From Escherichia coli (GTDB taxonomy: Bacteria > Pseudomonadota > Gammaproteobacteria > Enterobacterales > Enterobacteriaceae): 64,000 nucleotides of DNA. Where the stretch lies: assembly GCF_965641715.1 (NCBI RefSeq), contig NZ_OZ282453.1; one strand, given 5' to 3'. A program made the position numbers. The stretch's first letter is position 1. Every line of letters starts with the position of its first letter. Below, piece after piece: positions 6,001 through 12,000 of the stretch.

Positions 6001-9000
6001 TAGATTTAGTCCACAAATTGAACAGGGTTATCATGTAAAAATACTGATAAATCAGAGGATAAGAAAATCACGCAACTTGCGGATTTAAAAGGGGATACCT
6101 GAAGATGTTCGATCCAGAAACCTTGCGGACTTTCATTGCGGTTGCTGAAACAGGAAGTTTTTCAAAAGCGGCAGAACGATTATGTAAAACCACGGCGACG
6201 ATCAGTTATCGCATTAAACTTCTGGAAGAGAATACCAGAGTAGCGCTGTTTTTCCGTACGACTCGTAGCGTAACGTTGACAGCGGCTGGCGAGCATCTAC
6301 TTTCCCAGGCCAGAGACTGGCTGAGCTGGCTGGAAAGTATGCCCAGCGAGCTGCAACAGGTGAATGATGGCGTGGAACGCCAGGTGAATATTGTCATCAA
6401 CAACCTGCTCTATAACCCCCAGGCCGTCGCCCAGTTGCTGGCGTGGCTGAATGAGCGTTACCCCTTTACCCAGTTTCACATCTCCCGACAAATCTATATG
6501 GGCGTCTGGGACTCGCTATTGTACGAAGGTTTTTCGCTGGCTATCGGCGTCACGGGAACTGAGGCGCTGGCAAATACCTTTAGTCTTGATCCCTTAGGAT
6601 CGGTGCAATGGCGCTTTGTCATGGCGGCGGATCATCCGCTGGCGAACGTTGAAGAGCCGCTAACAGAAGCGCAGTTGCGGCGCTTTCCGGCGGTCAATAT
6701 TGAAGACAGCGCCCGCACCTTAACCAAACGCGTCGCCTGGCGATTGCCAGGGCAAAAAGAGATTATTGTTCCTGATATGGAAACGAAAATCGCCGCCCAT
6801 GTGGCGGGCGTTGGCATTGGTTTTTTGCCAAAATCGCTTTGCCAGTCAATGATCGATAATCAACAACTGGTCAGCCGGGTAATCCCAACGATGCGCCCTC
6901 CTTCGCCATTGAGTCTGGCATGGCGCAAATTTGGCAGCGGCAAAGCGGTAGAAGATATTGTGACCTTGTTTACCCAGCGCAGGCCGGAAATCAGCGGATT
7001 TTTAGAAATTTTCGGCAACCCACGCAGTTAAAAATCAAGTTTCCTTGCGCGTTGGCGCGTAAAATAGCGCGCAAGCTGATTTGAGGTTCACTTTTAACTA
7101 TGCAAGAGAGACACACGGAACAGGACTATCGTGCCCTGCTGATTGCTGATACGCCCATTATTGATGTTCGCGCCCCTATCGAGTTTGAGCAAGGCGCAAT
7201 GCCCGCCGCTATCAATCTGCCGTTAATGAATAACGATGAACGCGCCGCCGTTGGCACCTGCTATAAACAGCAAGGGTCAGACGCGGCGCTGGCATTGGGA
7301 CATAAACTGGTGGCGGGTGAAATTCGTCAGCAGCGCATGGACGCCTGGCGGGCAGCGTGCCTGCAAAATCCGCAAGGTATTCTCTGCTGCGCCCGTGGCG
7401 GTCAGCGCTCACATATTGTGCAAAGCTGGTTGCATGCAGCGGGGATTGATTATCCGCTGGTGGCAGGCGGTTATAAGGCACTGCGCCAGACCGCGATTCA
7501 GGCGACTATTGAACTGGCACAAAAACCGATAGTGCTGATTGGCGGTTGTACCGGCAGCGGTAAAACGCTGTTAGTGCAGCAACAGCCGAACGGTGTTGAT
7601 CTGGAAGGGTTGGCGCGTCATCGCGGTTCGGCGTTTGGTCGCACCTTACAACCACAACTTAGCCAGGCGAGTTTTGAAAACCTGCTGGCTGCCGAAATGC
7701 TAAAAACCGACGCCCGTCAGAATTTGCGCCTGTGGGTGCTGGAAGACGAAAGCCGGATGATCGGTTCGAATCACCTGCCGGAATGCCTGCGCGAGCGAAT
7801 GACTCAGGCGGCGATTGCGGTGGTAGAAGATCCGTTTGAGATCCGTCTTGAGCGCCTGAACGAAGAGTATTTCTTGCGTATGCATCATGATTTTACCCAC
7901 GCGTACGGCGACGAACAGGGCTGGCAGGAGTATTGCGAATACCTGCATCACGGACTTTCGGCTATTAAGCGTCGGCTGGGGCTACAGCGCTATAACGAAC
8001 TGGCTGCAAGGCTGGATGCAGCACTGACAACGCAACTCACCACCGGCAGCACCGACGGTCATCTGGCCTGGCTGGTGCCGTTACTTGAAGAATATTACGA
8101 CCCGATGTATCGCTATCAGCTTGAGAAAAAAGCGGAAAAAGTTGTCTTTCGCGGTGAGTGGGCGGAAGTGGCGGAATGGGTTAAGGCGCAGTGATGGGCG
8201 GTATTCTGAAACGGCGATTGTCGTGAGAACAGAATGGTTGCACCAGAATACAGATATAAAAAAACCGACATGACAGTCGGTTTTTTTATTTTTTCCGCCC
8301 AAGACTTGGTGGTTCCGGGCAGAAATGAAACAGTCCTCATCTAGCAAGTGAATTATAAGTCAGGATGCCTACATATTCAAACAGCTATGTTGGCGATACA
8401 ATCCCGACGCTAGTAGTGATACTGCCTCAAGGGATTACCGCAGTGCGGAAAAGTACTTTTAAGTCCTGGTCAGGATACAGGTGGTGCTGATTCTGGTGCT
8501 CTAATTTGGAGAGAGGCAGTCCTCATCTAGCACATGAAGAAAATCATAGTTACAGGCAACGTAAGGGTAAGCTGTGATTGTCTTTCTCCCTTAAGGGAGC
8601 AACGGATGAAAACTTTTCTCGATAAAGTTCTCATCGTGCTTAAGGCGCTAATCGCGCAGCTGGAACTGATCCGTCAGTTTATTGAATAACTGAGGAAACG
8701 TAGCTAAGGCCGAAGGTTTACCACCTTCGGCCTTTAAAAAAACCGACATGACAGTTGGTTTCATATTTATTGCCAAAATGCACACTGTTCATGCCAGATG
8801 CGGCGTAAACGCCTTATCCGGCCTACGGTTAAGTTCAGTTTTGTAGGCATGATAAGACGCGCAAAGCGTCGCATCAGGCATCTGCGCATAACTGCCGGAT
8901 GCGGCGTAAACGCCTTATCCGGCCTACGGTTGAGTGCAGTTTTGTAGGCATGATAAGACGCGCCAGCGTCGCATCAGGCACCGCCGCACAACTGCCGGAT

Positions 9001-12000
9001 GCGGCGTAAACGCCTTATCCGGCCTACACCATCTTGCAAAATCAATATATTGCACGATATTCGTAGGCCTGATAAGCGTAGCGCATCAGGCAATCTAACA
9101 CCTGTCATCACCCCGCAAACTGCCTGAACAGCGCCTTACCCTTAACCAGTCGCGCACCCAGCCAGCCGCCGAAAAGCGACAGCAGCAGCGCACCGCTGCA
9201 CGGCAGAACAATCCACAATCGCCAGTCTGGCTCCCACGGAAAATCAAACACTTTCGCCTGCAACACTGCCAGTGCCGTTTCCGCACCAATTGCGGCCACC
9301 AGGCCGGAAACAAACCCAAGCATGGCGAACTCACACCACAACGTGGTACGCAGCAGTTTTTTCCCCGCACCGAGTGTGCGCCACACCACCAGCTCCTGAT
9401 GACGCTGACGCATTCCCACCTGCACCTGTGCCAGCAACAGCAACATACCGCAGGCGGTGACCAGCACCACCATCACCTCCAGCGCCCGACTTACCTGCTC
9501 CAGCACCTGACCGACCTGTTTTAAAATCGCGCCAATGTCTAACAGGCTAATGGTAGGGAACTGGCGGTTGAGTTGCGTCAACATGCCGTTGCCATTCTCC
9601 CAGCGGAAACTGGTAAGCCAGCTCTGCGGTTGCCCGTCTAATGCCCCTTCAGGGAAAATAAAATAGAAATTAGGCCGCAGACTTTCCCAGTCCACTTTGC
9701 GCAGGCTGGTCACTTTAGCGCGGAACTCCTGGGTATCGCCCATAAAAGTCACAGTATCGCCGAGGGCAACGTTTAAGCGTTTCGCCAGCCCCTCTTCCAT
9801 CGACACTTCATCGGCTTTTGGCGGCCAGTTACCGGCGACAATCGGATTATGATCGGGCCGCGTATTTTGCCAGGTAAGATTGAGTTCGCGGTTAAGCGCC
9901 TCATCTTCATTACCTTCTGTCGGCTTATCGTTAATCGCCGTCAGTCTCGCCCGCACCACCGGATAAAACGATTCCGGGACTATCTGATGTTTCGCGAGGA
10001 ACGCTTTTAGCGGTGCTACCTGTTCTGTGGCGATGTTAATTAAAAAGTAGTTCGGGCTTTCTGGAGGTAGCTGCTGCTGCCAGCGGTCGAGCAGATCGCC
10101 ACGCAACACCAGCAGCAGTGCCAGCAGCATAAAGGAGAGCGAAAATGCCGAAAGCTGGCTTAACGTTGACCACGGCTGACGTAACAGGCGGCTAACTGCC
10201 AGGCGCAGAGGCAGCGATTTCAGCGTCATGCGGCGAAGTACATTCAGCAGCATCCAGCCCAGCACACCGCACAGCAAAGCCAGTACTACCGCGCCCGCCA
10301 GCACCGCCCAAAGCAGCATGCTGCCACCCATTAATCCGGCGAGCAGCAGCACAACCACCACACTGACAATCGGCAGATAAAACTTCAGCGGCCAGACGTT
10401 CGCTACCACATCATTACGTAATACGCGTAAAGGCTGCGTTGCCAACAACAAGCGGTACGGTCGTAGCCCCACCAGCAGCGAGATGACTGTCATGGTGCCA
10501 AGCGCCCACAGCCACGGCCAGAGGCTGGCAGGCGGTAGTGCAGCAGGCAGAACGGGCTTGAGCAGCACCATCAACACGTTTTCGAACAACAGGCCTATCG
10601 CCCCACCGGTAACGGCTGAAAGCGCCAGCACCATCAACCACTGACCGACGATTAGCTTACGCAGTTGCGCTCGCCCTGCCCCCAGCGTTTTGAGGATCGC
10701 CACCAGATCGTAGCGACTGCGACAGTAATGATTCATCGCCACCGCCACCGCTGCCACTGCCAGCAGCAAGGTCAGAAGCGCCGAAAGCAGCAGGAACTGC
10801 TGCGAGCGTTCCATCGATCGCCCCAGCGCGCCTTCGTCCTGTTCCAGACCGTACCAGCGTTGTTCGGGTTTAAGCTGAGGTAACAACCATTTCTCATAGC
10901 CGTCGAGCTGGTTCTCGTTGCCGCCGAATTTATAGCGCCAGGTGACCCGACTCCCCGGCTGCACGGCTCCGGTTTTATCGACATCCGCCAGATTCATCAT
11001 CAGACGCGGAGCCATCTGGAAGGGGTTAAAACCGGAATCCGGTTCCTGAATCACTTCTCCGGCAATCCGCAAGGTGGCATCGCCCACGTCAATGGTGTCG
11101 CCCGTTTTCAGGTTAAGCAGTGCCATCAGGCGTGGGGCCAGCAATACGCTGCCCGCCTGCGGTTTCAGGCCAGGGGGATTGGTTTGCAGATCGCCATACA
11201 TCGGGTAGATACCATCCACCGCTTTGACGTTCGCCAGCTGCGGTGTGTCGCCTGCAAATGTCATGGTGGCGAAAGTCAGCTGCTTGCCGACTTTCAGGCC
11301 GCGCTTTTGCGCTTCCTCCAGCCATGCTTGCGGCACTTCGCGCGAACTGCGCAACGCCCGATCGCCCGCCATAAACTCCCGGCTTTGTTGGCTTAAGCCC
11401 TTCTCCATGCGATCGCTGATATTGCCCAGCGCCAGCACGCAGGCCACCGCCAGGCTTAGCGCCAGCCAGACAATTAATAGCGACGGCGAGCGCCATTCGC
11501 GCCAGAACCAACGTGCAATCATGCTTCCTCCTGCAACTGCCCGTTCACCAGCCGTAAGCAGCGGTCGCAGCGTGCCGCCAGTTGCAGGTCGTGGGTCACC
11601 ATTATCAACGTGGTGCCATGCTCACGGTTGAGGGAAAACAGCAGGTCGGCAATTTTATCGCCGGTCTGGCGGTCAAGGTTGCCGGTGGGTTCGTCGGCAA
11701 ACAGCACATCAGGTCTACCGTTAAAGGCTCGGGCCAGCGCCACTCGTTGCTGTTCACCGCCGGAAAGCTGTGCCGGAAGATGAGCAAGACGTTTACCCAG
11801 CCCTAACTGTTCGAGCAACGCTTTCGCTCCGTTACGACTTTCCGCGCTACTCTCACCACGCAGCAGCGCCGGAAGCTCGACGTTTTCCAGCGCGTTAAGG
11901 GTAGGAATTAACATAAACGACTGAAAAACAAAGCCTACGTGCTTCGCGCGCAACTTTGCCCGCGCTTCTTCGTCCATATTATGTAGCGGTTGTCCCACCA

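Follow-up and report, generated by a model that had tools for sequence, protein, structure and literature searches.

The locus reported here resembles two described systems, a toxin-antitoxin locus and a variable Rhs position. In Escherichia coli K-12, the gor-arsR spacer holds dinQ-agrA-agrB, a type I toxin-antitoxin locus whose description is attributed to Weel-Sneve in 2013. The dinQ-like (dql) family, with 14 dql genes, was defined on the chromosomes and plasmids of Enterobacteriaceae, at times alongside dinQ (Kristiansen 2016). Rhs position 3, between ybbA/ybbP and ybbB, is tabulated as variable in Jackson 2009 (PMC2935791) and Archer 2011 (PMC3032704). According to the former, the position is younger than the split from B2-type strains and originated as a duplicate of another Rhs position. 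We analysed a 64,000 nucleotide stretch of E. coli DNA (contig NZ_OZ282453.1, assembly GCF_965641715.1), hereafter the window, and found that it carries a genuine Rhs-free allele of this position, the rhsD locus of K-12. Its flanks are those of the catalogued position 3, and it corresponds to the tabulated absent state, as in strain Crooks, which has no rhs at b0496-b0503 (PMC2935791, PMC3032704). On the content of the empty site the available sections of these two papers are silent. In the window it is filled by a dql cassette and by bacterial interspersed mosaic elements (BIMEs) with repetitive extragenic palindromic (REP) sequences. The present account also differs from the catalogue in counting two further allele types, an Hcp-effector island and a REP-only spacer. 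A text search of the literature for rhsD together with ybbP gave incidental mentions only.

The spacer lies between two conserved flanks, both taken from the list of open reading frames (ORFs):

7100-8194, plus strand: mnmH (selU/ybbB), tRNA 2-selenouridine synthase, 364 aa, left conserved flank.
9108-11522, minus strand: ybbP, ABC-transporter permease, 804 aa, right conserved flank.

The NCBI Prokaryotic Genome Annotation Pipeline (PGAP) calls both genes identically in H1, a near-identical genome and the closest complete one. From the mnmH stop to the ybbP stop the spacer spans 8195-9107, which is 913 bp by the ORF list and the sequence and agrees with the gap of about 910 bp given in the initial annotation of this DNA. 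That annotation had also placed rhsD and its trailing genes between ybbP and mnmH in K-12. The MG1655 annotation bears this out; the order is ybbP, rhsD, ybbC, ylbH, ybbD, ylbI, ylbG, selU (=mnmH). When the window was compared with the K-12 ybbP-selU stretch by blastn, matches were found in the flanking genes only, with a nucleotide identity of 99.2% on the mnmH side (7000-8196) and 98.6% on the ybbP side (9102-11600), which upholds the proposed Rhs-free state of a variable locus. The K-12 segment between the genes (approximately 7.3 kb; L001 6838-14130) showed no similarity anywhere in the window, and window positions 8197-9101 have no counterpart in the K-12 ybbP-selU stretch. An Rhs element, taken as an rhs core ORF with YD repeats, a tip and an immunity gene, is present between ybbP and mnmH in K-12 and O157 and is not found in the 913-bp spacer of the window. 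What the spacer does contain is as first described, namely a terminator hairpin, a small-ORF cassette and a REP/BIME array.

Allele types were counted in 5426 complete E. coli genomes, and the numbers are estimates from BLAST coverage classes, in which the REPs saturated the limit on pieces per record:

K-12-type ybbP-rhsD junction: 2875/5426, about 53%.
dql cassette: 1332/5426, about 24.5%; approximately 1312 contiguous with both flanks.
Hcp-effector junction: 572/5426, about 10.5%.
Short alleles, with the cassette or with none: 1726/5426.

The count of short alleles implies roughly 400 REP-only genomes, or roughly 7% of the total. The cassette is nearly always a single chromosomal copy (1338 places in 1332 genomes), and 1184 of the 1332 copies match that of the window at 99% identity or above. 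Strain 042 is among the carriers. The junction comparison took in Rhs-free genomes, K-12, O157, ST131 and four further Escherichia lineages. The spacer is REP-only and 140-245 bp long in F11, JA0072, Nissle 1917 and E. albertii; it holds the cassette with REPs in the window, GPEC673 and Escherichia sp. E1V33, and an Rhs island in K-12 and O157. In ST131 (L010 20359-25036) and E. whittamii (L014 1140-4467) the spacer is occupied by an island encoding Hcp fused to a Tle1-like phospholipase domain, followed by 2-4 DUF2931 genes. Type VI effector islands of this Hcp-ET kind (Hcp with a C-terminal toxin) are an alternative occupant of the mnmH-ybbP spacer; they are absent from the window and replace the last codons of mnmH, altering its C-terminus and adding four codons. 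Rare hybrid alleles were also found among the spacer states. In E. coli O157:H7 TR01 (L091 5989-6045), 51 bases of window-type sequence (8195-8245) are fused to the ylbG leader via a GGTTG microhomology; this hybrid, seen in one genome, may have arisen by genuine illegitimate recombination or be an artefact of assembly.

The boundaries of the exchangeable segment can be placed to the base, and the mnmH side is marked by one short shared element:

8195-8208: 14 bases TGGGCGGTATTCTG after the mnmH stop (junction line-up of 12 alleles).

With substitutions, these bases are common to REP-only, cassette and K-12/O157 Rhs alleles. By blastn, homology with K-12 stops at 8196 on the mnmH side and 9102 on the ybbP side; visual inspection puts these ends at about 8208 and 9105. 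The Rhs and cassette alleles both leave the REP-only sequence right after ...ATTCTG at 8208. A local alignment of the K-12 mnmH-ylbG spacer with the left arm of the cassette scored no better than shuffles, so the Rhs and cassette alleles share just approximately 14 nt past the mnmH stop. The Hcp allele departs inside the last mnmH codons, after 8185-8188. On the ybbP side every allele type converges 1-3 bp from the stop codon, each with its own hairpin. Alignment with K-12 and other E. coli sets the island boundaries beside the mnmH and ybbP stops.

This bears on the suggestion, made in the initial annotation, that REP arrays mark the recombination site. In its full form it would make the REP/BIME arrays the sites of rhsD insertion or excision, for example by REP-targeted recombination or transposition. 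The array is indeed the largest repeat in the spacer, its unit number differs between strains, and one rare allele, that of FDAARGOS_1298, has a junction at a REP. However, the Rhs alleles of K-12 and O157 have no REP sequence at either junction or inside the island, and the sequence common to the alleles stops beside the stop codons, outside the REPs. The whole array is absent from the Rhs and Hcp alleles and hence lies wholly inside the replaced segment, and the tract exchanged with E1V33 (see below) ends in coding 3' ends. Because the shared sequence ends beside the stop codons and the Rhs alleles are REP-free, we reject the suggestion for the Rhs boundaries. For K-12 and O157 it is already contradicted, and as a general account we consider it very improbable. 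We propose that the REPs would change only in copy number, within the allele. The FDAARGOS_1298 spacer (L006 596-653) is 58 bp long and joins a REP-only left end to half of an ST131-type Hcp-island terminator hairpin, and it looks like a deletion or a recombinant of two allele types.

A probable trace of allele exchange was found between the window and Escherichia sp. E1V33 (L012). The two differ by 3 mismatches in 596 bp of spacer, as compared with 3.9% divergence in mnmH/ybbP (Poisson P 1.6e-7). The low-divergence tract runs from about 8144 to about 9206, and the spacer within it is approximately 99.5% identical. This one cross-lineage comparison points to recent exchange of the whole spacer, to strong constraint, or to both; exchange would have been by homologous recombination, mnmH and ybbP each having a putative crossover in its 3' end. 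More generally, homologous recombination would carry alleles from one lineage to another, the crossovers falling in the flanking genes.

The next question is whether Rhs was gained by K-12 or lost from the window. In Escherichia, Citrobacter, Kluyvera, Kosakonia and Buttiauxella alike, mnmH and ybbP lie next to each other in convergent orientation, separated by 65 bp to approximately 5 kb. The Citrobacter gap holds an ABC transporter and a porin and is uninformative on the Escherichia alleles. In E. albertii the spacer is REP-only, 245 bp long and 87-89% identical to window positions 8786-9107, and as the REP part of the window is orthologous to it, this part predates E. coli. The strains of phylogroup B2 that were examined likewise have REP-only spacers. 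In the K-12 island the G+C content is 60-68% for the rhs core and 32-36% for the tips, as compared with approximately 52-57% for the flanks, a foreign, composite make-up typical of Rhs elements; YlbG is an insertion-sequence-like helix-turn-helix fragment. Based on the conserved gene pair, the E. albertii orthology, the REP-only B2 strains, the foreign composition and the account of Jackson 2009, Rhs is probably a derived insertion, and the window would never have held it.

The opposite course would be that an ancestral rhsD cluster was deleted, for example by repeat recombination, and that the present spacer was acquired afterwards. Jackson 2009 (PMC2935791) presents Rhs elements as rearrangement hot spots, with loss of rhs loci in some strains, and the Rhs state is the commonest of all (53%). 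Yet blastn detected no remnant of rhs, ybbC or ylbG in the window spacer, the REP part is older than E. coli, the island composition is foreign, and by the inference of Jackson 2009 (PMC2935791) position 3 is younger than the separation from B2-type strains. We regard such a deletion as highly unlikely.

We favour a reading in which the spacer would be a multi-allelic, replaceable segment between the convergent core genes mnmH and ybbP, with the REP array probably an old Escherichia filler. In the K-12/O157 lineage it would have been replaced, between a point approximately 14 bp past the mnmH stop and one 1-3 bp short of the ybbP stop, by a compositionally foreign Rhs composite (rhsD, immunity gene and tips, ylbG relic). 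In ST131 and E. whittamii the replacing unit would be the Hcp-Tle1-like type VI effector with its DUF2931 genes. Taken as a whole, that is a replaceable spacer, a window never occupied by Rhs, Rhs as the derived state, exchange by crossovers in the flanks, and a dql cassette with BIMEs as the present content, we hold this explanation with high confidence. Some points weigh against it. The polarity rests on few outgroups, and the ancestral Escherichia state is less than certain, since E. whittamii has the Hcp island and E1V33 the cassette. The low spacer divergence could partly reflect constraint on the RNAs and not recent transfer. The breakpoint in FDAARGOS_1298 lies exactly at the edge of the first REP, so REP-adjacent rearrangement does occur at least once. 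Finally, the cassette peptide aligns as more polar than K-12 DinQ and has three residues fewer.

The cassette itself, an insertion/deletion relative to the REP-only alleles of F11, JA0072 and E. albertii by alignment, consists of the following parts:

8209-8777: dinQ-like (dql) type I toxin-antitoxin cassette, 569 bp (alignment and junction line-up).
8344-8256, minus strand: AgrB-like antisense small RNA (sRNA) gene, putative antitoxin (Rfam RF02891, AgrB).
8352-8380, minus strand: sigma-70-like promoter TTGAAT-17-TATAAT, 10/12 (consensus scan).
8256-8289: hairpin with a perfect 14-bp stem and T-runs on either strand; first copy of direct repeat D3 (repeat/hairpin search).
8506-8533, plus strand: site in the 5' leader of the dql mRNA targeted by the antisense RNA (duplex prediction; direct repeat D4).
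8606-8689, plus strand: 27-aa DinQ-family peptide ORF MKTFLDKVLIVLKALIAQLELIRQFIE (NCBIfam NF041472; translation).
8706-8734, plus strand: G+C-rich hairpin after the dql stop (inverted repeat I7; aligned with the K-12 dinQ terminator).
8735-8774: copy 2 of D3, a second, degenerate AgrB-type terminator (83% to copy 1; repeat search).

Both the DinQ profile and the AgrB covariance model score above their curated thresholds in the cassette. The AgrB match covers the full model (1-84) with 53.6 bits against a gathering threshold of 40 (E 1.5e-7). The AgrB-like gene is divergent from the toxin gene, does not overlap it and lies 262 bp upstream of the ORF start. The sigma-70-like site would begin the RNA near 8344, in agreement with the first base of the Rfam match, and we infer that it drives the AgrB-like RNA. 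The hairpin at 8256-8289, which aligns as a homologue of the K-12 agrA/agrB terminators, is the predicted terminator of this RNA and probably also terminates mnmH. Positions 8514-8531 are complementary throughout to nucleotides 1-18 of the AgrB-like RNA, and the predicted pairing extends to approximately 26. These 18 contiguous pairs exceed the 15 nt of sRNA-leader complementarity taken here as the mark of a dql system; the energy of the whole duplex is only approximately 3 standard deviations better than that of shuffles. The same region holds direct repeat D4 (8331-8352 and 8517-8538, 16 nt exact). The 27-aa ORF is preceded, 6 nt upstream, by the Shine-Dalgarno sequence AAGGGAG. A longer in-frame ORF of 51 aa from 8534 is the one chosen by PGAP in other genomes, where it is annotated dinQ. 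With this name, and with 39.6 bits against a cutoff of 30 for the NF041472 toxin_DinQ profile, the earlier call of the small ORF as a toxin candidate stands. The 27-aa peptide scores below the cutoff of the DqlB profile (23 against 35), and a local Pfam scan of it gave no match, although the protein database carries a precomputed PF28061 assignment; a homology search with the 51-aa ORF contributed little.

By homology to dinQ-agrB, the AgrB-like RNA would be made from its own promoter, divergent from dql, and would pair with the dql mRNA leader and block output of the 27-aa membrane peptide. Over its whole length the cassette aligns at approximately 67% nucleotide identity with the dinQ-agrA part of the K-12 gor-arsR spacer, and the ORF aligns codon for codon with K-12 dinQ except for a 9-nt gap. 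The two loci share a divergent, non-overlapping sRNA 5' of the toxin mRNA, with the AgrB-like gene of the cassette in the place that agrA has in K-12, as well as the matches to the DinQ hidden Markov model (HMM) and the AgrB covariance model, a 27-aa peptide and the same terminator stems. They differ in several respects. The cassette is a second copy at a different chromosomal site and is found in only about a quarter of the genomes. It has one agr gene, whereas K-12 has two. The cassette ORF lacks 3 codons near the C-terminus and starts 4 codons further upstream. In dinQ proper a LexA box in the toxin promoter gives SOS control; the K-12 LexA box aligns to a gapped, altered stretch in the cassette, and a LexA box of the form CTG-N10-CAG is absent from 8195-9107. 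The canonical dinQ-agrAB locus is present in 5422/5426 complete E. coli genomes, so the cassette is an extra copy. Judged from these sequence features, the small ORF is a predicted second, non-SOS dinQ-like toxin-antitoxin copy in approximately one quarter of E. coli.

Among plasmids, 1633 bear relatives of the mRNA part of the cassette that are annotated dinQ or dqlB and 60-80% identical; most of these plasmids are conjugative, and they come from Escherichia, Klebsiella, Salmonella and Enterobacter. Three records labelled as plasmids with approximately 99% identity are megabase-sized and presumably chromosomes. A plasmid origin of the cassette was considered and rejected, the plasmid copies being just 60-80% identical.

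The core of the cassette is bounded by the two D3 copies (8257-8296 and 8735-8774, 478 bp apart). In E. coli SCPM-O-B-8794 (L011 11093-11328) we found a solo hairpin allele that consists of the outer arms of the cassette and one D3 copy, with the core gone, followed by REPs. As the hairpin is homologous to the K-12 agr terminators, we take this allele to have lost the core precisely, by recombination between the repeats; the opposite course, a gain, is less likely. It should be noted that the flanks of this allele are just 90-96% identical to the window and that it comes from a divergent Escherichia genome. A second lesion is a 108-bp deletion (8518-8625) between short AGT(C/T)CTCATC repeats, exemplified by strain MEI003 (L008), which takes out the antisense target site, the ribosome-binding site, the start codon and the first ORF codons. 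It accounts for approximately 4 of 30 evenly sampled carriers (83% coverage class), or roughly 13%, and suggests recurrent or inherited toxin inactivation in some carriers.

Such lesions would also fit a cassette that is an inert relic, a decaying dinQ-agrAB duplicate carried by hitch-hiking. A single agr gene with a degenerate second terminator, a spacer free of LexA boxes, the shortened, more polar peptide, the deletion in approximately 13% of carriers and the solo hairpin allele all point in this direction. Against it, the window has an intact ORF with its Shine-Dalgarno sequence, and the promoter of the sRNA, the terminators and the 18 bp of complementarity are intact too, most copies (1184/1332) are at least 99% identical to the one in the window, and the covariance model and HMM matches exceed curated thresholds. 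We consider the relic explanation unlikely, though not negligible.

The repeat-bounded structure and the E1V33 tract also invite a stronger version of the replaceable spacer, in which it would be a dedicated hot spot swapping unrelated toxin modules and dql a terminator-bounded 478-bp unit, precisely lost and recently spread by short tracts. We put this forward tentatively, as a doubtful extension of the favoured reading. If true, small type I toxin-antitoxin cassettes would be mobile alleles competing with larger toxin islands for one site.

As to what is already known, PMC2935791 and PMC3032704 cover the variable Rhs position, Kristiansen 2016 the dql family, and the ORF is annotated by PGAP. 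The four mutually exclusive allele types (with three toxin modules), the base-level junctions and the repeat-bounded cassette may be new, as bookkeeping only. The main value lies in a correction and a clean annotation: the empty state of a known presence/absence locus is described base by base, and the REP array is old spacer content and not an island boundary. The counts of the four alleles might be of use as a marker for typing, and as a small example of toxin modules replacing one another. Current understanding is not overturned.

The remainder of the spacer is taken up by the REP/BIME array, in which the Y/Z naming of the REPs follows established BIME usage:

8787-9095: BIME array overall (repeat search and Rfam).
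8787-9027: BIME-2-type array of 3 Y REPs alternating with 2 Z2 REPs (repeat families D1/D2).
9028-9095: BIME-1-type end, a spacer with a match to the integration host factor (IHF) consensus and an inverted Z1 REP (inverted repeats I3/I4).

The Y REPs lie at 8792-8826, 8893-8927 and 8993-9027, with a period of 100-101 bp, and Rfam naRNA4 matches cover 8846-8924 and 8947-9024 (77-82 bits against a gathering threshold of 59.5). In the BIME-1-type end, which is conserved in E. albertii, the IHF-consensus match AATCAATATATTG (consensus WATCAANNNNTTR), read directly from the sequence, is found at 9040-9052, the inverted Z1 REP at 9062-9095 and an Rfam ES036 match at 9028-9070 (44.5 bits against 37.6). 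Alternating inverted Y/Z palindromes, typical spacers and periodicity are all present. The array is an ordinary composite, with one BIME-1 unit after two BIME-2 units. It resembles known BIME-1/BIME-2 clusters (naRNA4/REP325-type) in its Y/Z alternation, 100-bp period, IHF-site spacer, position between convergent genes and variable unit number, and nothing in it is unusual relative to them. The window has two 100-bp units more than most cassette carriers, which are 200 bp shorter, and a full-length match to its array was found in only approximately 1 of 10 sampled carriers.

Two of the mnmH loci collected are labelled as other taxa, L046 as an uncultured Alistipes sp. and L086 (394-bp) as Trinickia soli. 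Both carry E. coli mnmH, with 98-100% protein identity, which looks like E. coli contamination in these assemblies.

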